A stretch of DNA of 64,000 nucleotides from an uncultured Methanosarcinales archaeon (GCA_964552945.1 CAZKIP010000002.1:136990-200989); one strand, 5' to 3'; numbered from the stretch's first letter, positions 166 through 11,753 are shown. Numbers and translations are program-made. The notes: a model not told the origin generated them from the letters alone.

Positions 166-489
166 GTGGTTTTCAGAAAAATTGTGAGAGTGGACTCTCC
201 GGATGATTTTTATCATCCTCAGCATTTTGTTTCAAAATTTTTGCCAAGCATTTCTGCCGAACATGTCCATAGAAATTCGATGATTGTTGGCGACAGCAAA
301 AGTGTTGTAAGACAAGTGTATCATTTGCCCAATATGGGTGCTACATTAAAATATTCTAGTACTCATTCAGCATTAGATTCTTCTAAACCTTATGCAGTTA
401 CTATCTCGGTCCACGGATCAGATGAGGCTCTTTCAGAATTTGAAACACTTTTGACAGCTGCCGAGAAAAAGAATTATTCTTCCAAATAA
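166..489 (+). CDS. hypothetical protein (107 aa)
   Basis: GTG-start ORF downstream of a BRE/TATA-like CGAAAGTTTTATATA (about 130-144), followed by a T-run; no motif recognised. Confidence 0.55.
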   Translation: MVFRKIVRVDSPDDFYHPQHFVSKFLPSISAEHVHRNSMIVGDSKSVVRQVYHLPNMGATLKYSSTHSALDSSKPYAVTISVHGSDEALSEFETLLTAAEKKNYSSK

Positions 490-676: not shown

Positions 677-874
677 TCATTTGTCCGATTTCAACCTCAA
701 TTTTGGACTTATCCTATCTTTCAATGCCTTAAAGGTAATATCCTCAACATGATCTAACAACAATTGTTTTTTTTCATTTTCTAAATTTGTTAAGAATACA
801 TCTAAGCGCTTGTTTCCAGATACATCTAGCTTCTTTTTTCTCTTTTTACCACCCATTTTGATGGTATATTTCAA
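677..874 (-). CDS. small basic hypothetical protein (start possibly at the internal Met, MGGKKRKKK)
   Basis: ORF fills an otherwise empty gap divergent from the 971 operon; no homology recognised. Confidence 0.4.
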   Translation of the reverse strand: MKYTIKMGGKKRKKKLDVSGNKRLDVFLTNLENEKKQLLLDHVEDITFKALKDRISPKLRLKSDK

Positions 875-926: not shown

Positions 927-941
927 GGAAAACTTTATAAA
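927..941 (+). promoter_or_regulatory. archaeal BRE+TATA promoter of the 971-10980 operon
   Basis: GGAAAAC-TTTATAAA about 30 bp upstream of ATG 971. Confidence 0.6.
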
Positions 942-970: not shown

Positions 971-3900
971 ATGGCTTCAAAAAGATCATCTATTGCATCG
1001 CATAGAACTGCTGGTTCTCGTAGAAGTACCTCTTCCTCTTCTATACCTATTCGTTCTGTTGAACATTCTTATGAAATAAGGTTTGATAAAAAAGTTTCTG
1101 CAAAGGACAAAATGAAGGTTTGTTTAAAAATTGATGATAGAGGTGATCCTGGAACCTCTTATAAGAAATTAGGTGACGAACATAATCCTGGTGGTTTGCT
1201 AGTCACTGGAATGAGAGCGAATATAGATAAAATGCATGATGTCGTTAGAAGCGCTGACGTTTTTGATTATTCTGTACGTGAAATAGATGAATCTGATGGC
1301 GATCAAAGAGCTTTTGGTGAATTATTAGAGCATGAACGCACAAAAAATGAACTTGGTGCATCTAGAATATCAAATTCAGAATTGTCTCAAGAAGTATCTT
1401 TTTTAAAATCTAAAAACCAGAGTGTCACAGATAATTTAACATTAGTTGCTTCTGATTTAAGGAGTTCATTAGAAACATTGGCCTCTTCAGTTGGTGTTTC
1501 GGCACCTACAGACGATGTTTTTTCTGACAGAGATACTCTAGCTGACTATGTTGCTAAATTGGCTTCAGAATGTGATTCTAGGGTTGCAGCAGCTACTGTT
1601 TCAGTCATTCAAAGGGAAAGGGACGAATATCACCAGAAGGTAGATGATTTAGAAGCTCAATTAACTACATTAAGTGAAGATTTTGCTAATTTAAAAAGTG
1701 ATTCTGAATCAAAAGAATTCGAACGCGACAGAGATCTCACTGCAAAGTCTGATAAAATTAATACTTTAACAGCAGACAATCTTGGTAAGAGAAGAGAAAT
1801 CAGAAGTTTATCAACAAAAGTTGCCAATCTTGATGTGAAAGTCGAAGGTTTGAGAACTATTAACAGAAATACTGAAGCTGAAAAAAAGTTATATAGAGCT
1901 CATCTAAAAATAGTTTATGATGCATTGACTTCTGTAGCAAGTCTTGTTGATATCCAACTTCCACCTTACATGGATTTAATTAAACTATCTGAAACCAATT
2001 CAACTACATTTGAGGACGAATTAAATGTACAATACAAGTTAATTGAAGACAAAATAGGTTCCATGTCTACTGAAACTAGAGTTGTAGATCCTGATGGGAT
2101 TGAAATTCCTACCGATGCCAGTGCTTTGCTAAAATATTACAAAGAAAAAGCCAATAAAAAGGAAGAAGAATTGGTTGTTTTAACTATAGATCATGATAAA
2201 TTAACTGTTACTTATGCTAATTTGACTAATAAGCAGGGTAAATTAATAACCGATTACAATGCATTAGTAGGTAGATTCAATAATTTGTTATCTGTGAAAA
2301 ATGATCTCGCAGCAAAACACGCATCCGCTGAAAAAGAATTAGATAAAGCAAAAGATGATTTGAAATGGAAAGATCGAAGAGTAACTGATTTAAAATATAT
2401 AGTAACATCATTAGAAGAAAAATTAAATGGAGATCTTCTTCCAGATCCAAATGCTGAATTTTTACCTACTTCCCTTTGCTATGTTTTGGGGGTTTGGAAT
2501 CATAAATTGATTGGTGATATCAAGAAAAAGATTGATAACAGACTTTCACAATCGTCAAAATCAAACAACTCATTCTATGGTAATCATAGAGAGATTGTTG
2601 GTGGTAACATTGTATGGAGATACAGCGCCCTTGATAGTGAATTAACTACAGTCCTAAAAGATGATTTTGGTTTCAGTGATTCCGAATTAGCAGATAAAGA
2701 AGCTGCAGTAAAAGCATATTTTACTTACAATAAAAATAAAGAATTCTCCAATTGGGAGGATGACAAATTGGTGACCCCTAGAGAGTTATCATTGGCATTC
2801 AGAAAAACTATGAGTGGAGTTCGAAGAATGATTAAGCACGGTATCTCTACATTACCTAAATACACCGAGCAAGAGAAAGAAACTATTGATGGTGCTTACA
2901 TGAGACCTTACCTGTGGGGAGAAATAAAAAGCATTTTCTGTGAAAGAAAAAGTCATGACCTTGATATGCGTGAACCTTTCCCAGTTTATTCAGACAGGAT
3001 TGATGATTTAGAGGAACTTCTTACATCTGTAAGAGGAAAGATGGCAGAAATTGAAGGCACTCTATCAGAAAGAGAAGATTACATCTCACAATTAGAATCA
3101 GACATTGCAGATGCTAAATCTGAAATTGAAACTTCAAATGTGCAAATAGCAGAATTGGAAGCAAAAACTTCAATAAGTGATGACATAACTGCTGAGGAGT
3201 TGTTTGTTTTAGCATTCCAAAGAAATGGAATCGTAAGTAATTTTAATGCAGTTGCAAACCAATATTCGGCTATTCCATCTGGTTCAACTGATGATTTAGA
3301 AATTTTGGCAAGAGGAGAAATAGGAACTATTTTAAGAGGAATCTATGAACAGAAGATAATTACTCCCTCCAAATTGGCAAGATTAATAAAAGCAAGAAGT
3401 GACGAACTTGATGTTGATAAACTTGAATCAGCATTGCATAAAATAGCTTTACCTTTTGAACAATCTGAAGGATATAAACAAAGCAATATTGATTATGTTA
3501 GAGCTAAAGGACTGAAGAAAGCTTTTCATGCAGTTAGAAAAGACGATGATACTACTGAAGCCAAAATAAAATCTGAAGCATTAGATGTGATTAGAGCTTA
3601 TGAAAAAGATGAGAAGGATTATCTAGAAGCTCAAAAAACTGCTCAAAATATTTTATCAGTTTTACCAACCCTTAAGGAATCATATAGAGAAGCTAATACA
3701 AGATCAGGACAAGTTCTGGAAGATATGGCTAGCTCACCAGTTGAAGCCACAATTGAATGTGTTGCTTATGGAGTTAATGAAGGAGATTACAGAGTATCCT
3801 TTTTATTGTTACCAAAGTTTGCAGATATTGTTACACCTTTAGGTCTTCAGCTAACTAAAACATCAAGAGAAATTCTTGCACCATATGGTCGAGAAGATGA

Positions 3901-4093
3901 CCCTGTCACAATTTCAGAAGCTAATGGCTCTTTAAGGGTAGATGTTAACTATTCATCTAAAGAAATTTTAGGAGAAAATGGTGTTGAAGAACTGATCCAA
4001 GTATTTCAGAAAGGAATTGCCAATTCTCTCTTGGGACAAATGGGAGTAAATTTGAAAGTGAAAAATGTAGGAGAGGTCAGGAATTATGAGTGA
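971..4093 (+). CDS. large coiled-coil protein (1040 aa) with globular N-terminal, central and C-terminal segments
   Basis: Long heptad-rich stretches (about aa 115-490 and 675-735), Ser/Arg-rich N-tail; no Walker A/B, so not SMC. Confidence 0.8.
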   Translation: MASKRSSIASHRTAGSRRSTSSSSIPIRSVEHSYEIRFDKKVSAKDKMKVCLKIDDRGDPGTSYKKLGDEHNPGGLLVTGMRANIDKMHDVVRSADVFDYSVREIDESDGDQRAFGELLEHERTKNELGASRISNSELSQEVSFLKSKNQSVTDNLTLVASDLRSSLETLASSVGVSAPTDDVFSDRDTLADYVAKLASECDSRVAAATVSVIQRERDEYHQKVDDLEAQLTTLSEDFANLKSDSESKEFERDRDLTAKSDKINTLTADNLGKRREIRSLSTKVANLDVKVEGLRTINRNTEAEKKLYRAHLKIVYDALTSVASLVDIQLPPYMDLIKLSETNSTTFEDELNVQYKLIEDKIGSMSTETRVVDPDGIEIPTDASALLKYYKEKANKKEEELVVLTIDHDKLTVTYANLTNKQGKLITDYNALVGRFNNLLSVKNDLAAKHASAEKELDKAKDDLKWKDRRVTDLKYIVTSLEEKLNGDLLPDPNAEFLPTSLCYVLGVWNHKLIGDIKKKIDNRLSQSSKSNNSFYGNHREIVGGNIVWRYSALDSELTTVLKDDFGFSDSELADKEAAVKAYFTYNKNKEFSNWEDDKLVTPRELSLAFRKTMSGVRRMIKHGISTLPKYTEQEKETIDGAYMRPYLWGEIKSIFCERKSHDLDMREPFPVYSDRIDDLEELLTSVRGKMAEIEGTLSEREDYISQLESDIADAKSEIETSNVQIAELEAKTSISDDITAEELFVLAFQRNGIVSNFNAVANQYSAIPSGSTDDLEILARGEIGTILRGIYEQKIITPSKLARLIKARSDELDVDKLESALHKIALPFEQSEGYKQSNIDYVRAKGLKKAFHAVRKDDDTTEAKIKSEALDVIRAYEKDEKDYLEAQKTAQNILSVLPTLKESYREANTRSGQVLEDMASSPVEATIECVAYGVNEGDYRVSFLLLPKFADIVTPLGLQLTKTSREILAPYGREDDPVTISEANGSLRVDVNYSSKEILGENGVEELIQVFQKGIANSLLGQMGVNLKVKNVGEVRNYE

Positions 4094-5825
4094 AGAAAAA
4101 ACAATTGAAGAACTTGTAATGGATGGTGTTCTTAACCCTACACAAGTAGCAAGGTTGTTTTCTGACAAAAACTTTAATCCTAATCACAGATATACACCTG
4201 AACAATTATCTGGTTTTCTTAGTGATATTAGTGATGTTGTTACTGCAGGTGATGAAAATGAAAAAATTAATTCGGATGTTAACGTTGAAAATGAAGGCTT
4301 GTTATTTGTTTATGACCCTAAAAATCACGTTAATTATGTCACGGTTATAGAAAATGGTAAACCTAACTTTTCTCTTAGTCCTACAGGTGAGTTAGATCAA
4401 TCCAAAGTAATTCCAAGTTTAAATCCATTGATTAAAGTTTTGGCAAGCTCTGGAGCTACTGATGAGTCAGAAGCAAGGGTTCTATACAGAGGAAGTTGTG
4501 AAAAAGATAAAGCAGCAAATAATGATGGAAATGATGAAATTGAGAATAATGACAATGATAAAAAGAAGAAAAAGAAAAAAAGAAAACCCAGGAAGAAGAA
4601 ACCAGGATTCATTGTTGATGAACTTGCAGTTGATTGGTTTATTAATAATAGAAAGAGTATAATCTCAGAATACTTAAATCCTGAATCAAAACCTGGCAAG
4701 CAAACTGAACTTAAAGGAGAAGCTGCTGTAGCATCATTAGGTTTGAAGAGAGTAGAAGAGCTGAATCGTAAAGGGATGGTGGCATATTTTCAACCATGGG
4801 GTGGGTTCATAAAGAAGAATAAAGGTAGCATCAGAACACAAAGAACCATTTATATTTCAAAAGTAAGCATGGATGATAGATTTAGCTCAATTGTTAGTGA
4901 TTTTTATGACAAATTTGAATTGTTACCAAGAGATGAAAATGGTGTTCCAAATGTCTTAGGAATGTTTGTTAAACCATCTTTAGAAGATAAAGTAAAAAAT
5001 GTAGAAAGTCCTCAACAACTTATTACCTATTCTGAAGGTAGAAATCATTCTATATCAAAAAGTATTTACAAATGGTTCGAAAAAGAAATTTCTGATAAAG
5101 GACTTGATGTTAAAATTCAAATGGCGGTTGAAGTTCTGAGAAACGATATTCGTTCAAATAAATTCATGAGGAAGATGGATAAATCAATACAAAGAAGAGT
5201 TAGAGAATGTAGTGCAATTTGGGTTATGTATGCGTCTGCTGGTGAAGAAATGGCAAATAATTCATATTTAAAAGAAGATGTTCTTCCTGAATTAGAAGAC
5301 CCTGATAGAAGAAGCGTGGATAAGCAGTTTGATGTAGCGTGTCATCTTGCAAAAAGAACTATGGACCCATCAATTAATTATTCATTTACTAAGTATCGTT
5401 TCCATCTCAGAGGTTTATGGTTACAAGGGAAATTAGTAAAAGAGGAGGAGGAAGAATTAACGGGTAAAGGATTTGAAGTAACTTATATAACTCCAGTTAG
5501 CCATGTAATACAAAGAGATTCACGATACACTCCTATATTGATTGATTCTTTTAGAAACCTTCTTGAAGATGGGAGAATATCTGGTGAAGATTTAAAATTG
5601 GAAAAGTCTGAGGACTGCGCAAAGTTAGGAGCAAGGTTATACTTCAATTTAAGAGAAGCTGAGAGAAGTAAATTTACTTGGCTTAAAAATGATACCATTT
5701 TATCTAGTAAGGAAAGAAATTATTATGTTTTCAACGTTCTTAAATTTTGGGCTGGAATGAATAGAGATGGGTTAAAACAAGTTGCTGCTGATTATAATGC
5801 ATCAAAAAGTGTAAAAGTGGAGTAA
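4086..5825 (+). CDS. hypothetical protein (579 aa) with an Asn/Asp-rich then poly-Lys tract
   Basis: Long ORF overlapping the upstream stop, with GGAGAGG upstream; no family recognised. Confidence 0.8.
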   Translation: MSEEKTIEELVMDGVLNPTQVARLFSDKNFNPNHRYTPEQLSGFLSDISDVVTAGDENEKINSDVNVENEGLLFVYDPKNHVNYVTVIENGKPNFSLSPTGELDQSKVIPSLNPLIKVLASSGATDESEARVLYRGSCEKDKAANNDGNDEIENNDNDKKKKKKKRKPRKKKPGFIVDELAVDWFINNRKSIISEYLNPESKPGKQTELKGEAAVASLGLKRVEELNRKGMVAYFQPWGGFIKKNKGSIRTQRTIYISKVSMDDRFSSIVSDFYDKFELLPRDENGVPNVLGMFVKPSLEDKVKNVESPQQLITYSEGRNHSISKSIYKWFEKEISDKGLDVKIQMAVEVLRNDIRSNKFMRKMDKSIQRRVRECSAIWVMYASAGEEMANNSYLKEDVLPELEDPDRRSVDKQFDVACHLAKRTMDPSINYSFTKYRFHLRGLWLQGKLVKEEEEELTGKGFEVTYITPVSHVIQRDSRYTPILIDSFRNLLEDGRISGEDLKLEKSEDCAKLGARLYFNLREAERSKFTWLKNDTILSSKERNYYVFNVLKFWAGMNRDGLKQVAADYNASKSVKVE

Positions 5826-8800
5826 GTGATTAAAATGTCTTCTGATCCTACTTCTTGGAACTTGGAAGAGCGGTTATCTTTGGTTCTTGAAACTCTTGGA
5901 AAACTGCCTCCTGATTTTAGATGGTCTGCTGATCCCTACCTAAATAAGTTAAGAGATGAATCATTACGAAGAGGGAGTTCTGTTGAAGAAATATTCAATG
6001 CATTGGGTGGACAAAGTTTCTTTAATAGTGTTGAAGTTACAATCCCTTCTCTAAGGCAAGCTTTGGTTGCAGAACAAATTGCTAGAGCGGGTTTTTTGCA
6101 TGGTAGAAAACTGGTTGATCCAAGTATACCTGGGAGTCGTAAGACAGGTGGAGCGTTGATCGCCATAGATGCCATCAACAGAAAATATCTGCCTCAATTG
6201 ACAGGTTCTTTAGACAGAAAAGTAAAAACATTGTATTTCTGTCCGGGCCATCTTATTCCAAAAATGCAAAGTGAAGCACACCTGTTTCTAGGAGATGATA
6301 GAATAATTGTACCTATAACTCAAAAGAATAGAGAAAGGGACATTGAAAGAGCTTCAAAGGATGATGTTGATCTTGTGTTACTATCTGACTCAATGTGTTA
6401 TCAAAGTTTAAGACCAGAAAAAAATGATGATTTAGTTAACCAGTATTCATTTAATAAGTTCATCTCAGCAATGGCCGAGTTTAAAACAGTGAACGATGCT
6501 GCAAATGGGTTAGCAAAAATTATTGGAAAAAAAAGTATTTTTAGGAACTTCATGTCAAAAAATCCTCCCAAGCATGAAATAGTTGAAAGAATTGTAACTG
6601 AAAGAATTAAGGGAGAGCAAGACTCAGTGATGGAATCATTAAGAAAGAAAGTTTTTCCTAGTGATGGATTATATTATGTCATTCTCGATGAAATTCATAA
6701 CATAGTATCTCCTGATTCAGCTAGAGCAACAACAATAGAAGACTTTTTTCGTAGCTCAAGATGGGGGGTTGCCTTAACTGGAACACTTATTGGTAATTAT
6801 GTTTCAAATGACAGGTTTCTTGCTTACTTGTTAGGAATTGTTGGCGATCCCGAACATTATAATAGATTGGTAACAAATGATCCACAAAAAGTAAGAATGG
6901 TTTTCAAGCCATATACAACATTTCCAATTATTTCAGATATTAGAACAATTGATCCTGATATTCCTGAAACTACTAGAGGATTTATTAATTACGATCCATT
7001 AGAAGAAATAGTTAGACTTCATGTAGAGCTAGAAGACGCAAAATGTTTCTCAGTTGGTGAGAAAGTTTTGATATCAAGGTATCTTCTAACCAATCCCGAA
7101 AAGGTACATCCAGACAATTTTATTGATCCAGCAGAAGGAACTTTATGGTACAGAGCAGAAAGTTTCTTTAATGATCCAGAGAGATTAGATTTGTTAGAAA
7201 AATCTATTGAAAAAGGTTCCAATCGTGTCAAAGCATTAAAAAATTATTTGATTCAAACAGAACCTGATGAAAAAGCACTGATCTTTACTGTGCATACTTC
7301 TTTAACCACGAGATATTTGCAAGAAGAGTTAGAAAAATCAGGGTTCAAATTTGAAATAATTGACAAATCGGTCCCTACAGAGGTTGACGAAAATGGTCTT
7401 TCAGAGAGAATGATAAGATGGCAAAGAGCACTTTATAATCCAGAAATGAAAGGGCTTATTGGTTCTGTTGGGACATGCAAGGAAGGATTGGATGGCCAAA
7501 TGTATTCTTCAATTGTATATTATGAATCTCCCACCGTTTGGTTTGAGAAAAAACAAGGAGACGGAAGAGGTGAAAGAAGTGGACAAAGAAATAATTTACA
7601 AATTATGGAAATGATGGCAACTGGAATTCCAACTGATAAAATAATTCATGATTTTAGATCAGGAAAAGGAATGAAACCAAAAGAATTTTATCATGGTGAT
7701 GATTTAGATCTGAAAGAATTGGAATCATTCCTTAAAAAGATTGCAGAAGACAGAATTCCACAATTGGCAATTTTGAAAAATCTTGATTCAAGAGGACATT
7801 TATCATTATTTTTTAATTCAAATGTAGGCATAGGTTCGAAAGGATTCTATAAATCATTAACAACACATAATAATCACGTCTTTATGGTTGAAAGATTTAA
7901 TATCAATTATGATAGTTCTCATTCGGCAAATGTAGGACGCATGCTCCATTCAATTATTAGTGAAGGCATTGAAATTCTACCAGAAGAGAATTCTGAAAAT
8001 AACCCAGAAAAAATTTCACTTGAAAAATTAGCCAATAAAGAATTTGATGAAATAATTGATTTGGGTTCAGGATGTGCTGTTTATTCTAGAGCATCATCTA
8101 AACGAACAACTTGTGTTGACTTATCTGGAAGACAAATGGATTATGGTAGAGAAGCCTGTGAACAAAAAGGCATCAACGGAAACAAATATTATCTTGGTAG
8201 CATACATGATTTGTCTTCACTAGTATCATTGGATAATACGGAATACGACTTGTTTGTACCTGATAAAACCTATCATAATAAAGAAGGAATAAATGATAAT
8301 TCATTGGATTTGGCAGTTTGTTCAAATGCATTTTATTATTTGAATCAAGATGAAAGAAAAGACTTTTTCATTGAAATGAAGAACAAAATCAAGGATCAAC
8401 ATTATTTGGTAATGGTAGTTCCACGTTCAAAAATCTCCTCAGAATGTGAAGAAAAATTCTTACAGGATATAGAAGAGTCCGGATTTGAAATTGAAAAAAA
8501 TTTATCAGGAGAATATGCTGCTTTAAAATCTCATGATTCTGAAACTGGAAGAAGTGCAAGAAAATCAAGTTTTAGAAGTATTGTCATTATTGCTAAGAAT
8601 AATAAATATCATCAACCAAATTTTTCTTCAGATAGAGATTATTTTGTTCTGCAAAATGAATATGAGGTAAGAGACGGGAATCCTAACAAAAGAGACATTG
8701 AACACGCTGATGATGTTACCAAATCACCAAAAATTATATGTGATAGTTTTTACAAAGCAAGAAAGCTCTCTTATGCCACTAAAGAAACAGAAATTTCTAC

Positions 8801-8933
8801 AGGTATTGAATCTGATTCCAATGTCGTGGAAACACCTGCAATTGAACCGACATCAGTTTATCAAAGGCCAGATTTAAAAGAGGGATTTACTGATGCACTA
8901 AACGCATTTTCGGAGGTTTTTGGAGATGACTGA
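5826..8933 (+). CDS. SF2 (SNF2-like) helicase/ATPase fused to a C-terminal class I SAM-dependent methyltransferase
   Basis: Walker A-like PGSRKT, motif Ia LYFCPGHL, II ILDEIHN, III LTGT, IV KALIFT, V TCKEGLD, VI QGDGRGERSGQ; MTase motif I IIDLGSG, then CVDLS and DLAVCSNAFYYL; likely start ATG 5835. Confidence 0.8.
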   Translation: MIKMSSDPTSWNLEERLSLVLETLGKLPPDFRWSADPYLNKLRDESLRRGSSVEEIFNALGGQSFFNSVEVTIPSLRQALVAEQIARAGFLHGRKLVDPSIPGSRKTGGALIAIDAINRKYLPQLTGSLDRKVKTLYFCPGHLIPKMQSEAHLFLGDDRIIVPITQKNRERDIERASKDDVDLVLLSDSMCYQSLRPEKNDDLVNQYSFNKFISAMAEFKTVNDAANGLAKIIGKKSIFRNFMSKNPPKHEIVERIVTERIKGEQDSVMESLRKKVFPSDGLYYVILDEIHNIVSPDSARATTIEDFFRSSRWGVALTGTLIGNYVSNDRFLAYLLGIVGDPEHYNRLVTNDPQKVRMVFKPYTTFPIISDIRTIDPDIPETTRGFINYDPLEEIVRLHVELEDAKCFSVGEKVLISRYLLTNPEKVHPDNFIDPAEGTLWYRAESFFNDPERLDLLEKSIEKGSNRVKALKNYLIQTEPDEKALIFTVHTSLTTRYLQEELEKSGFKFEIIDKSVPTEVDENGLSERMIRWQRALYNPEMKGLIGSVGTCKEGLDGQMYSSIVYYESPTVWFEKKQGDGRGERSGQRNNLQIMEMMATGIPTDKIIHDFRSGKGMKPKEFYHGDDLDLKELESFLKKIAEDRIPQLAILKNLDSRGHLSLFFNSNVGIGSKGFYKSLTTHNNHVFMVERFNINYDSSHSANVGRMLHSIISEGIEILPEENSENNPEKISLEKLANKEFDEIIDLGSGCAVYSRASSKRTTCVDLSGRQMDYGREACEQKGINGNKYYLGSIHDLSSLVSLDNTEYDLFVPDKTYHNKEGINDNSLDLAVCSNAFYYLNQDERKDFFIEMKNKIKDQHYLVMVVPRSKISSECEEKFLQDIEESGFEIEKNLSGEYAALKSHDSETGRSARKSSFRSIVIIAKNNKYHQPNFSSDRDYFVLQNEYEVRDGNPNKRDIEHADDVTKSPKIICDSFYKARKLSYATKETEISTGIESDSNVVETPAIEPTSVYQRPDLKEGFTDALNAFSEVFGDD

Positions 8934-10038
8934 TCCTGTTGATATAAATCAATTGAAGAATCAAGCCAATGATTTAGGAAAAATTTTGGTTGATAATTTT
9001 GATAAACACAGACTCAACCCATTGTTTACATTATGGGGAGTTTCATTTTATTGGGGTTCGAGCGGTTTTTTTGAACAAGCCAGGAGTCAATATAAGAAAT
9101 TTGTTCCCACTGTATTTGATTTAGCAAACGAACGTAGTATGAATGCTACATTGCGAACTATTCCAAAAAGAAGTGGTATTGCATTCCAATACACTGCACA
9201 TTGTCTTAGTAATAGAGATTTGATTGAAATCCTCATGAGGGATTTAATTGATGATCAAGATTTGGGAGAAAAAGTACAGGATATTATTTCTGATAAAAGG
9301 TTAATCATTGAATCAGCATCTAGATATGTTTCTCTACATAAACATGGTGTTTTGTCAGAAGATGTTGATTTTATTAGTTATCTTTTGAGGTACAATCCTG
9401 ATGATGTTTCAATTAACATGGAATCAAACGAATATGGCGGTATATTTGTTCCATTGGGAGAGAGATTACTTTATCGTTTTGAAAATAAGGCAGAAGATTC
9501 AATTTTTTCTGTAGATCATCCAATGTTAGATGAAGCGTCTGAGTTACATCAAAGAGCAGTTTATGGAAAACAGAAATTAGATCAAGAATTAATTGATATG
9601 TATCATGATGTTAAGAAAAAAAATACTGATTCTGATTCAAGAACAAATGGTTCAAATGGTATAAAAATTGATGATGATAGTAGCACTAAAGTTACTAAAT
9701 TGTATTTTCCTGGGATGAGGAGAGTTAGGGTGAGAAGCAATTCTACAAATGTAAACTGGGAAAAATTCTTTGATTACAGAAATAAAGAATTAAAAATCTC
9801 CTCTTCACTAAATCCTACCGAAATTTATATAAATATGACCAAAGAATTCTTAATAAAAGAATATGAAAGTAAATTCATGCAAAATCCTGAGGGCGCATTA
9901 AATTGTTTGCAAGGAAAGATAGGGGCAAGCAAAGGGATTAAAAAAAGAGTTCTTGAAGAAGTTTATGAAACTTTCAAGGGAGCGTATGAACTAATACACT
10001 CTCCAAATCTTAATCATAATTTGAGGTTAAACAAATAA
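8926..10038 (+). CDS. hypothetical protein (about 370 aa)
   Basis: ATG 8926 overlaps the end of the helicase gene, GGAGG at 8912-8916; no family recognised. Confidence 0.75.
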   Translation: MTDPVDINQLKNQANDLGKILVDNFDKHRLNPLFTLWGVSFYWGSSGFFEQARSQYKKFVPTVFDLANERSMNATLRTIPKRSGIAFQYTAHCLSNRDLIEILMRDLIDDQDLGEKVQDIISDKRLIIESASRYVSLHKHGVLSEDVDFISYLLRYNPDDVSINMESNEYGGIFVPLGERLLYRFENKAEDSIFSVDHPMLDEASELHQRAVYGKQKLDQELIDMYHDVKKKNTDSDSRTNGSNGIKIDDDSSTKVTKLYFPGMRRVRVRSNSTNVNWEKFFDYRNKELKISSSLNPTEIYINMTKEFLIKEYESKFMQNPEGALNCLQGKIGASKGIKKRVLEEVYETFKGAYELIHSPNLNHNLRLNK

Positions 10039-10092
10039 TTAAAACATGATTTGAAATATAAATGAAACAAAAATATATGCGAGGAAAAATAA

Positions 10093-10980
10093 ATGACAAA
10101 TGGAAATGAAGATAGAAACCCAGTTGGAGCATTAATTGAAAAAGCACTTGATGCATGTTTCGGTAATGTTGTTGATGATAATGTTCGTGGATTATTAAAT
10201 GGTGGTGATTTTAGAGGAGCGGCTGCAGCACTTAAAGAAGTTGTTTCTGTAAGAGGCCCTGTTGGTGGCCTTGAAAAAGCAGTTCAAGAAAGATTTCCAG
10301 GGGTTGATACTTCTCTTGTAAGGTCTGCAATGGAATCTGCACAATATGGCGTTGTAGTTGATAGTATCATAGGCCTTTCTGAAAAATATTCTGGTGGTCA
10401 AGATAATTCTGCTAGTAATAATACAGGTGATCAATGTTCACCTATAACTCCAAATAGAGTTTTTAATCCATACGAAGGCAACCCTTTAGCAGTTGCTTTA
10501 AAGTTGTGTGGATCAATATTAAAGTACAACGGAAATGAAGCTTTGATAACTAAAGTTTCAGGTTGGAGCGCAGTAGGTGGAGATGACCAAAGATTTCCAA
10601 TTGCAGAACCTGGAACCATTGGAACTTGGCATTCAAACGCTTATGGTGGTTATGATGTTGGTATCGTCTCAGCCCATGAGGCCGATGGTACTGGCATTGT
10701 AGCTTTTTATGGCCTTAAACCAATTGTGGATGGAAAAGTAAGGGCTGAATTAAAGAGTAAAAATAAGATTGCTAATGAATGGGGATTCACTGATTCAGGA
10801 GTTTATGGAAGAAACCTTGTAACCTCAACTGGATTACCAATGGAAATTGAATTTCGTCAAGGAGGTCAAATTAATGTTGGTGGAAAAATATTCAAAATTG
10901 AGATGGAAGGTACTGAACGAGAACGAACTGCTAAAAGCGGTGACATGATGCTTGGTACCTACAAACTAGTTAAAGGATAA
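10093..10980 (+). CDS. protein with helical N-terminus and a divergent 3-methyladenine DNA glycosylase (AAG/MPG)-like C-terminal domain
   Basis: NPLAVALKLCGSIL, LITKVSGW, AEPGTI, YGGYD, VAFYGLKP and KIANEWGF follow the order of the MPG motifs; the catalytic ETEAY Glu is absent; GAGG upstream. Confidence 0.55.
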   Translation: MTNGNEDRNPVGALIEKALDACFGNVVDDNVRGLLNGGDFRGAAAALKEVVSVRGPVGGLEKAVQERFPGVDTSLVRSAMESAQYGVVVDSIIGLSEKYSGGQDNSASNNTGDQCSPITPNRVFNPYEGNPLAVALKLCGSILKYNGNEALITKVSGWSAVGGDDQRFPIAEPGTIGTWHSNAYGGYDVGIVSAHEADGTGIVAFYGLKPIVDGKVRAELKSKNKIANEWGFTDSGVYGRNLVTSTGLPMEIEFRQGGQINVGGKIFKIEMEGTERERTAKSGDMMLGTYKLVKG

Positions 10981-11010
10981 TTATTTTCTTTTTTTCATTT
11001 ATTTTTATTG
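10981..11010 (+). terminator. T-rich archaeal-type terminator of the 971-10980 operon
   Basis: TTATTTTCTTTTTTTCATTTATTTTT directly after the stop codon. Confidence 0.5.
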
Positions 11011-11123
11011 TATTTATTTGATGTTGTTGTAAGATATTCTCATTATTATTATTACTATTATTACTATATTATAATTTAAAACTATAATAAACAAAGAAAA
11101 ATTAAAAAGTAAAAACAAAAAAT

Positions 11124-11753
11124 TTAATCACACTTCACATCTGAAAATTTTTTACAACTAGAATACCTTTCAGCTACTTCATCCCAATTTACAAGTTTCA
11201 TAAAGTTGTCTATCCATTCTCCACGCTTGTTTTGATATTTCAAGTAGTAAGCATGTTCCCAAACATCACAAACCATGATTGGTTGTAATCCTTGTACCCA
11301 TACTTTCTGATGATTCTCAACAGCAAATACATGTAATGAACCATCTGGACAAGTAGCCAAGACACCCCACCCAGAACCTTCTACAGAAGTAGTAGCTGAT
11401 TTGAATTGTGCAACAAAAGCATCCCAGCTACCAAACCATTTCTCAATAGATGATAACAAATCTCCAGCTGCCTTATTATCCTCATTACCAGGACGCATGT
11501 TTTTCCAAAATAAACTATGTAGTAAATGACCAGCACCATGGAATGCTTGCTCACGTTCCCAGTGTTTTATTAAGCTGTAATCGCCAGATTCTCTGCACTC
11601 AGCTAACTTCTTAATTGCGTTGTTAACACCTTTCACATAACCAGCATGATGCTTTGTATGGTGAATTTCAACTGTTTCTTTGTCATAATATGGTTCCAGA
11701 GCATCATAGCCATATGGCAAGTCTGGCAATGTAAATTCATGTTTTTCTGTCAT
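11124..11753 (-). CDS. sod: Fe/Mn superoxide dismutase
   Basis: LPDLPYGYDALEP, HHTKHH, HSLFW, DVWEHAYY; GGAGG upstream of ATG 11753. Confidence 0.97.
   Translation of the reverse strand: MTEKHEFTLPDLPYGYDALEPYYDKETVEIHHTKHHAGYVKGVNNAIKKLAECRESGDYSLIKHWEREQAFHGAGHLLHSLFWKNMRPGNEDNKAAGDLLSSIEKWFGSWDAFVAQFKSATTSVEGSGWGVLATCPDGSLHVFAVENHQKVWVQGLQPIMVCDVWEHAYYLKYQNKRGEWIDNFMKLVNWDEVAERYSSCKKFSDVKCD

Follow-up and report, generated by a model that had tools for sequence, protein, structure and literature searches.

Herein, we describe a cassette of five genes at one end of a 64,000-nucleotide (nt) stretch of DNA from an uncultured Methanosarcinales archaeon (GCA_964552945.1, CAZKIP010000002.1:136990-200989); the whole stretch is called the window. 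Five co-oriented open reading frames (ORFs), named A to E, occupy positions 971-10980 of the + strand and overlap or abut, the intergenic distances being -8 nt (A/B), 0 nt (B/C), -14 nt (C/D) and +54 nt (D/E). The initial annotation, which was made from the sequence alone, had reported five co-oriented genes of which the first four overlapped or abutted, and its coordinates agree with the ORF calls. Of the gene sizes that it gave, only that of D differs, which encodes 372 amino acids (aa) instead of 370. Two of the five genes belong to families with recognizable domains: C encodes an ATPase motor fused to a methyltransferase, and E encodes a protein with the fold of the DNA glycosylase AAG/MPG. 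In the following, G000 denotes the genome that contains the window, G001 that of its sister species, and other G and L numbers the genomes and loci of relatives. The features discussed are collected in Table 1.

Table 1. Coordinates of the cassette and associated features in the window
Feature	Position	Strand	Description
Variable segment	47..11158	.	No DNA similarity to G001 (blastn, G000 vs G001)
ORF	166..489	+	107 aa; inside the variable segment; no Pfam match
ORF	677..874	-	65 aa; lysine-rich; within the swapped segment and divergent from gene A
Putative archaeal BRE/TATA	927..941	+	Purine-rich stretch followed by TTTATAAA; read by eye
Gene A	971..4093	+	1040 aa; ATG start
Gene B	4086..5825	+	579 aa; ATG start
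Gene C	5826..8933	+	1035 aa; GTG start
SNF2 ATPase core of C	6109..7685	+	Approximately residues 95-620; from motifs and family profile
Methyltransferase domain of C	8028..8600	+	Approximately residues 735-925; DLGSGCA (motif I), acidic residue after strand 2, DLAVCSNAF (motif IV region)
Gene D	8920..10038	+	372 aa; TTG start
Gene E	10093..10980	+	295 aa; ATG start
Putative archaeal terminator	10981..11010	+	T-rich tract after the stop codon of E; read by eye

Gene C encodes an SNF2-family ATPase, a class I (type 11) S-adenosylmethionine (SAM) methyltransferase and a conserved C-terminal tail. The ATPase contains motifs I (PGSRKTG), II (DEIHN), III (LTGT) and VI (GRxxRSGQ), and these four motifs are conserved in the family. 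When the family profile was compared with the sequences of solved chains, the best match was the Sulfolobus SNF2/Rad54 protein 1z63 (E=4.1e-21), and further matches included Chd1, INO80, SWR1, ISWI, DDM1/HELLS and CSB. By its motifs and sequence similarity, the N-terminal part of gene C belongs to the SNF2 family. The Pfam cut-off for SNF2-rel_dom (24.9 bits) was exceeded by the relatives L031 (37 bits) and L055 (32.9 bits) and by the short forms described below (96-118 bits), whereas the C protein of the window scored only 12 bits.

For the methyltransferase domain, the profile matched 68 methyltransferases among the solved chains at E<=0.1, with 3l8d as the best (E=5.6e-12). Three positions of the alignment, G110, D126 and D189, are invariant and represent the glycine-rich motif I and two acidic positions, and the C-terminal part of C is accordingly classed as a class I, type 11 SAM methyltransferase. 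The nucleotide- and SAM-binding motifs are thus kept in both domains, and the fusion of an SNF2-like helicase with a SAM methyltransferase, which the initial annotation had recognized, is borne out by the family profiles. Relatives of C exceeded the Pfam cut-offs for Methyltransf_11 and Methyltransf_25, and the window's C fell just under them (23.4 vs 27 bits for Methyltransf_25 and 20.7 vs 21.2 bits for the second family). The domain assignments of C and E hold for the gene families and not for the window proteins taken singly: the Pfam scores of the window's C are sub-threshold, and its E has no Pfam match of its own. The named enzymes among the solved matches include some that act on small molecules, proteins or rRNA, the last exemplified by RRP8 (E=3e-4) and RlmA (E=0.034). 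The (D/N/S)PP(Y/F/W) signature of DNA amino-methyltransferases was not found at the conserved motif IV, which reads DLAVCSNAF in the window and DLAVCSLAL in the short forms, and the Pfam families N6_Mtase, N6_N4_Mtase and MethyltransfD12 had no match in the window's C or in the relatives searched.

The family of gene E comprises eight members, and its profile matched human AAG (E=6.8e-6) over residues 10-117 of the crystallised domain (1f4r, 1ewn and 3qi5). PF02245 was matched by three of the eight members at E<=0.1 (best 1.3e-11); two of these, with 44.7 and 44.2 bits, passed the cut-off of 27 bits, and the third, with 20.8 bits, did not. The window's E, which has an N-terminal extension of 125 residues relative to AAG, was linked to the family by a hidden Markov model (HMM) trained without it (E=3.1e-10). 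These matches give the family its similarity to the AAG/MPG fold and substantiate the AAG/MPG-like fifth protein of the initial annotation.

In the alignment of the E members with canonical archaeal MPG, the position of the IVETEAY motif is taken by ITKVSGW in the window and by VTETGAY, IVQTGAY, IVQVGAY, IIEVEAW, ITDVRAW and FSEVLSW (twice) in the others. The catalytic (general-base) Glu, the second Glu of the motif, is retained in only one of the eight members (L031, the G286 form) and is replaced by Ser in the window and by Gly, Leu or Arg elsewhere. All eight retain the aromatic residue that follows the catalytic motif, and the Tyr-Gly wedge is also kept. We take the general base to be the equivalent of Glu125 of human AAG, and we assume for the aromatic, Tyr-Gly and Glu residues the roles that they have in the human protein. 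Judged from this residue pattern, E is probably a binder and not an enzyme. No canonical PF02245 gene was found in G000. In G309 and G094, two genomes of one genus, a canonical MPG gene of 183 aa (Pfam E ~1e-59) lies convergent directly after E (L032:14556-15107 and L056:2826-3377, both on the - strand). E could have arisen from this gene by duplication, or the two could be functional partners.

For A, B, D and E, searches of Pfam, PADLOC and PHROGs returned nothing above the thresholds. The product of gene A is acidic (isoelectric point 5.15) and gave only sub-threshold matches of coiled-coil type, so that it is probably rich in coiled coil. Conservation with the first gene of the G184 cassette extends over the C-terminal 350 residues of A (BLASTP E=2e-11, residues 690-1037). 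The B protein carries a poly-lysine tract (KKKKKKKRKPRKKKP) and was found by tblastn in G184 (4e-24) and G279 (8e-31). Profiles of B and D had no match among the sequences of solved structures, and the ESM Atlas look-up for the two proteins was uninformative. The AlphaFold2 model of D is all-helical, with a predicted local distance difference test score (pLDDT) of 67.4 and a predicted template modelling score (pTM) of 0.64, and Foldseek gave 0 matches to it in the PDB at E<=0.001. A wide VIA-align search with the same model reached a best Z of 6.4, which concerned the C-terminal helical hairpin only. Of the five genes, D marks the cassette most specifically.

The full A-B-C-D-E cassette, with the same gene order and similar gene sizes, was found in four further genomes belonging to the same class. 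According to the ORF maps, the five products measure 902, 543, 1034, 364 and 216 aa in G184; 782, 500, 945, 385 and 197 aa in G286; 812, 497, 1013, 386 and 216 aa in G309; and 753, 499, 1008, 386 and 207 aa in G604. Copies cut by contig ends were found in G094 (the end of C, then proteins of 390 and 227 aa) and at L061 (A, B and C). In L061, which is a low-coverage contig, B is split at 4491-5962 into two ORFs of 211 and 272 aa, which reflects a frameshift or else a fault in the assembly. Gene overlaps of -4 to -14 nt recur across the cassette genomes, including conserved overlaps of 4 nt. When tblastn was run with the window proteins, B, C and D were found in both G184 and G279, and E additionally in G184. 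HMMs trained solely on the subgroup of G286, G309, G604 and G094 found the D (E=6.6e-9) and E proteins of the window, the latter at the E-value given above, and the reciprocal search held as well. A and E are the fastest-evolving genes and C is the slowest.

The distribution of the cassette is sporadic. Gene C was found in none of 40 close relatives, the sister species included (1/41, the one being G000 itself), and cassette-type matches were obtained in 6/401 genomes of a phylum sample and in 6/401 genomes of a class sample, both counts including G000. The C HMM gave 14 matches at E<=1e-5 in the phylum sample and 54 at E<=1e-8 in the class sample, most of which represent the generic helicase C-lobe of other helicases. 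A word-indexed search among 5.8 billion proteins yielded only two close relatives of C (49% and 52% identity). The same type of search with D gave 5 clusters, and the D profile HMM, run against 1.84 billion cluster representatives, gave 78 matches at E<=0.001, 66 at <=1e-10 and 24 at <=1e-30, indicating that the D family is real but rare. Pattern scans with the alignment of close C relatives identified no relative among the candidate stretches of metagenome contigs (0/359) or of genome contigs (0/113). In viral contigs, this alignment gave three weak matches of 69 residues with 32% identity, which are taken as generic helicase similarity, and a second alignment gave zero. The neighbours of the cassette vary, being a recombinase and a superoxide dismutase (SOD) gene in G000 and RNA polymerase genes in G184. 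The term 'orphan', under which the operon had first been described, is thus too strong in view of the two relatives of C, the 78 cluster representatives of D and the four further genomes; the co-occurrence on which that description depended is present, since the genes are found together, and in order, elsewhere.

Variant loci were also found. In G279 (L030, on contig C21), the helicase lacks the methyltransferase, and the two following genes, a D homolog and a fifth gene (5197-6978 and 7024-7704), both differ from those of the window. The D homolog has an N-terminal NucS-like PD-(D/E)XK nuclease domain (E=5e-6), and the fifth gene, in the place of the AAG-like gene, encodes an MnmC-type methyltransferase (Methyltransf_30, E=1.5e-27). 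G571 and G248 contain a short SNF2-type 11 methyltransferase fusion of ~785 aa with clear Pfam matches, beside an MPG-like protein of 148-160 aa (E ~1e-11) and together with proteins composed of many helix-turn-helix (HTH) or 'homing-endonuclease-associated' repeats. In G557, a short fusion stands with an HTH-type repeat protein and a DUF488 protein. At L057 (G571, contig C1, 8297-15558), proteins of 571, 390 and 673 aa, which consist almost wholly of repeated HTH units, flank the short fusion. Each of these repeat proteins matched up to 60 Pfam HTH families, and a Fic gene lies upstream. From these variant loci it follows that the SNF2-methyltransferase fusion and the AAG-like protein are the recurrent core, and that the DNA-binding and effector parts are changeable. 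A relationship of B and D, as diverged forms, to the HTH-repeat proteins found at the same positions in G571 was considered and dropped, homology being unsupported at hhalign probabilities of 12%, 0.2% and 1%.

A TATA-like, A/T-rich element (TTTATAAA at 934-941, with GGAAAA before it) lies ~30 nt 5' of the ATG at 971. A promoter and terminator consensus scan showed no excess of signals (52 promoter-like sites vs 50.5 expected and 5 terminator-like sites vs 5.3), the scanner being built on bacterial signal models that are not applicable to archaea. Searches for tRNA genes and Rfam families gave zero matches in the window. In codon usage and third-position GC content (GC3), genes A to D lie inside the bulk of the long ORFs of G000, and E deviates somewhat from them (74th percentile of distance). 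Because C, D and E have homologs and A and B have positional equivalents elsewhere, the overlaps recur and the codon usage is typical, A to E are more than chance ORFs. Overlapping contigs from two sequencing runs, which may be the source of this DNA, tile the region, one contig of 7.65 kb corresponding to 3034-10683 and another joining E to the SOD gene (10660-11739). Identical cassette fragments are contained in two additional runs of these two studies and attest presence only. Among seven sequencing runs, no RNA dataset was found.

The cassette lies at a site where the two sister genomes differ. G000 has a size of 1.31 Mb in 38 contigs, a GC content of 33% and a completeness rated at 100%, and the window corresponds to positions 136990-200989 of its contig 2. 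In blastn of G000 against G001, similarity stops at window position 46 and restarts at 11159. The borders of this variable segment are syntenic, with a tyrosine recombinase on the left and SOD on the right. The recombinase (206 aa, L002:19305-19925 on the - strand, Pfam E=6e-28) is located ~1 kb upstream of gene A, and G000 contains three weaker paralogs of it (C2, C9 and C23). G001 keeps the frame of PAC2, recombinase (82% identical) and SOD without the cassette, and carries at the same site (L013, G001:C5, 2888-12250) a complete A-type ATP-synthase operon (H, I, E, C, F, A, B, D) and a GT2 gene. None of the nine ATPase subunits that were searched had a match in G000. The A subunit of the ATP synthase is patchy, occurring in 10/45 other genomes of the family, and in G010 it is again found ~9 kb after PAC2. 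Given the shared PAC2-recombinase-SOD frame and the patchy ATPase, the site is a swap point at which the recombinase is a resident and not cassette cargo. The recombinase may mark a recombination hotspot.

Outside the variable segment, the genes on both sides are of cellular, archaeal type: PAC2, glycosyltransferases, a fused primase and RNA polymerase subunit L upstream, and SOD, peroxiredoxin, ferredoxin and Fur downstream. Within the segment, the small ORF at 677-874 could encode a small DNA-binding regulator. In all four runs examined, the summed contig depth rises ~5-fold in the bins 1601-2000, inside gene A, and 11201-11600, which corresponds to the conserved SOD gene. Loose contig ends occur within these two bins, at 1719 and 11227-11411. 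In the first of these bins, a short stretch may be shared with an abundant organism. Elsewhere in G000, contigs C19, C22 and C26, each of ~5 kb, have a GC content of 47-56% vs 33% in the rest of the genome and are probably foreign or mis-binned.

We tentatively propose, with less than even confidence, that the cassette may be an accessory and mobile system for DNA modification, of the defence type, in which a motor-coupled writer would be combined with a non-cutting, base-flipping reader. The five genes would constitute one horizontally moving operon devoted to nucleic-acid modification of the conflict (defence) type. The motor of C would track along DNA, and its methyltransferase would place a non-canonical methyl group as a mark, possibly at a ring nitrogen of a purine. 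The AAG fold recognises bases methylated on a purine ring nitrogen, and E could flip and bind the marked base, or its unmethylated form, without cutting and could in this way tell marked from unmarked DNA. The coiled-coil A, lysine-rich B and helical D proteins may act as scaffold or adaptor subunits brought together via coupled translation. The effector would vary among systems; in the window, which is without a nuclease, it might consist of BREX-like non-cutting interference or of host repair enzymes. The NucS-like nuclease in G279 and the short forms elsewhere indicate that the accessory parts vary as they do in defence systems. Further points in favour are the conservation and tight coupling of the five genes, their sporadic distribution among changing neighbours, the different gene set at this site in the sister genome, the intact motifs of the motor and the methyltransferase, and the AAG relationship of E with its mostly lost Glu. 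The write/read system for modified nucleic acid that had been suggested at the outset remains an inference; it gains some support from the missing catalytic Glu of the AAG-like E and is weakened by a methyltransferase that falls outside the known DNA-methyltransferase types.

Several observations weigh against this proposal. For the methyltransferase of C, which is a generic type 11 enzyme, DNA as the substrate is an assumption; those solved enzymes that come closest to it either are uncharacterised or have small molecules, proteins or RNA as substrates. The window's E reaches no Pfam threshold by itself, and the call of Glu loss rests on an alignment of low identity (18-27% to canonical MPG). 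Between the two subgroups of cassettes, the similarity of B is weak but collinear (hhalign probability 44%, E=2.3e-4, 320 columns), and homology of A was not detected by hhalign (probability 0.2%). The neighbours in the window are housekeeping genes and do not form a defence island. Given the native codon usage, any transfer was not recent or came from kin. Pfam and PADLOC revealed no nuclease or other effector in the window, as the initial annotation had already noted for nucleases, and the PADLOC scan of the five proteins identified no defence system, only weak single-domain matches.

Among the alternatives, the one that survives best is a lineage-specific DNA-repair or chromatin module, which we consider unlikely. 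Here the SNF2 motor would clear or remodel proteins bound to DNA and, with the AAG-like protein, would find purines with alkylation or other damage, and the methyltransferase would act on a protein partner or RNA. The presence of the repair SNF2 enzymes CSB/ERCC6 and Rad54 among the matches of the C profile is consistent with such a module, as are the derivation of E from a repair glycosylase, the canonical MPG gene adjoining the cassette in G309 and G094, the oxidative-stress neighbours SOD, peroxiredoxin and Fur, and the native codon usage. However, a lineage-specific module does not agree with the scarcity of the cassette in the two samples of 401 genomes, its absence from all 40 close relatives and a neighbourhood that differs in each genome, and a family in which seven of eight members have lost the catalytic Glu is ill-suited to a repair enzyme. 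The same sporadic distribution and differing neighbours fit poorly with the DPANN-specific chromosome-handling complex that the initial annotation had offered as its second possibility.

It is decidedly unlikely that the cassette is the cargo of a mobile element, such as a plasmid or virus remnant, which would serve for anti-restriction protection or as an addiction module. Helicase-methyltransferase fusions do occur in anti-restriction proteins of phages and plasmids, for example DarB of phage P1. The helicase part of C matches the phage family phrog_62 (E=2.9e-11), a tyrosine recombinase lies upstream, and the segment 47-11158 has been swapped relative to the sister species. The recombinase as a sign of an integrated element is weakened, however, by its presence in the sister genome without the cassette, where it cannot be a cassette part. 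In addition, the segment contains no replication, capsid or transfer genes, and the two scans of viral contigs gave no relative. An RNA-directed system, in which the type 11 methyltransferase would modify rRNA, tRNA or viral RNA and the motor would work on RNA-protein substrates or R-loops, has only a slim chance of being correct: RRP8 and RlmA among the solved relatives, the match of the G184 copy of C to the RRP8 family Methyltransf_8 (E=2.9e-6) and the MnmC-like enzyme of G279 (tRNA modification) speak for it, whereas SNF2 enzymes translocate along double-strand DNA, proteins of the AAG fold work on DNA, and the variants carry a NucS-like DNA nuclease (G279) and DNA-binding HTH arrays.

If the proposed modification system is real, an SNF2 motor would be coupled directly to a non-canonical methyltransferase and a disabled repair glycosylase would be reused as a base reader. 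It would represent a new enzyme class in the marking of DNA or nucleic acid, a rare case of a repair enzyme turned into a sensor, and a candidate defence system in DPANN-type archaea, of whose immune repertoire little is known. A more specific version, namely that the cassette, by means of a remodeller-driven type 11 methyltransferase, deliberately writes a lesion-like methylpurine (e.g., N3- or N1-methyladenine or N7-methylguanine) into DNA that is read by a glycosylase without its catalytic residue, is improbable, and we offer it as speculation. If it were true, a base that is normally treated as damage would serve as a signal, giving a new epigenetic mark of self and non-self. Genes A, B and D, which have no known family, are targets for work on structure and function. 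The location of the cassette at the ATP-synthase site of the sister species also bears on how large functions are gained and lost at one site in reduced genomes.

As the initial annotation had stated, the gene set corresponds to no described system: the PADLOC matches were weak and confined to single domains, Pfam pointed to no such system, and no paper describing this set turned up among titles and the beginnings of abstracts. DISARM resembles the cassette as a sporadic multi-gene operon with an SNF2-type ATPase, a methyltransferase and large accessory proteins, and DrmD had a weak PADLOC match (E=8e-4) to residues 549-634 of C, in the helicase C-terminal lobe. Unlike DISARM, the cassette contains no match to DrmA, DrmB (DUF1998) or DrmC (phospholipase D-type) in PADLOC and Pfam and is not classed with it; the DISARM methyltransferases (DrmMI/MII) modify N6-adenine or C5-cytosine, whereas that of the cassette is of type 11 and fused to the motor. 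We know of no DISARM system with an AAG-like subunit. BREX comprises the PglZ phosphatase, the PglX methyltransferase, the BrxC ATPase and BrxL. It shares with the cassette the modification-based principle, a helicase and a methyltransferase, usually without a nuclease, and the non-cutting interference proposed here; BrxHI/HII had a weak PADLOC match to C (E=0.023). In contrast, PADLOC found no PglZ, PglX, BrxC or BrxL in the cassette and the methyltransferase class differs, which places the cassette outside BREX. The best PADLOC match of the methyltransferase domain was mad2 of MADS (E=2.1e-6, residues 732-889), but no other mad gene model matched any of the five proteins. The type III and ISP restriction-modification systems, in which a Res-type helicase with a PD-(D/E)XK or Mrr nuclease is combined with an N6-adenine methyltransferase and its target-recognition domain, are also distinct, as ResIII reached 13.6 vs 22.5 bits and Pfam gave no nuclease or N6-methyltransferase family in the window.

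At the level of single proteins, E is like AAG/MPG (PF02245) in fold similarity and in its aromatic and Tyr-Gly residues, and unlike it in the general-base Glu, which AAG/MPG possesses. The Sulfolobus solfataricus protein 1z63 is, like C, an archaeal SNF2 ATPase, but it is without a methyltransferase, and its match covers the ATPase lobes only. By analogy, the nearest mechanistic counterparts of C may be the eukaryotic SNF2-methyltransferase couples, that is, the DNMT5 fusion and DDM1/HELLS with the DNMTs, in which a remodeller ATPase and a methyltransferase likewise combine for ATP-driven access to DNA. The eukaryotic DNMT partners are C5-cytosine enzymes, whereas the enzyme here is of type 11, and the comparison implies no common descent of the fusion. 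Judged by its gene content, the cassette appears to be a previously undescribed gene set that lies outside the membership of DISARM and BREX and is like both in its logic.

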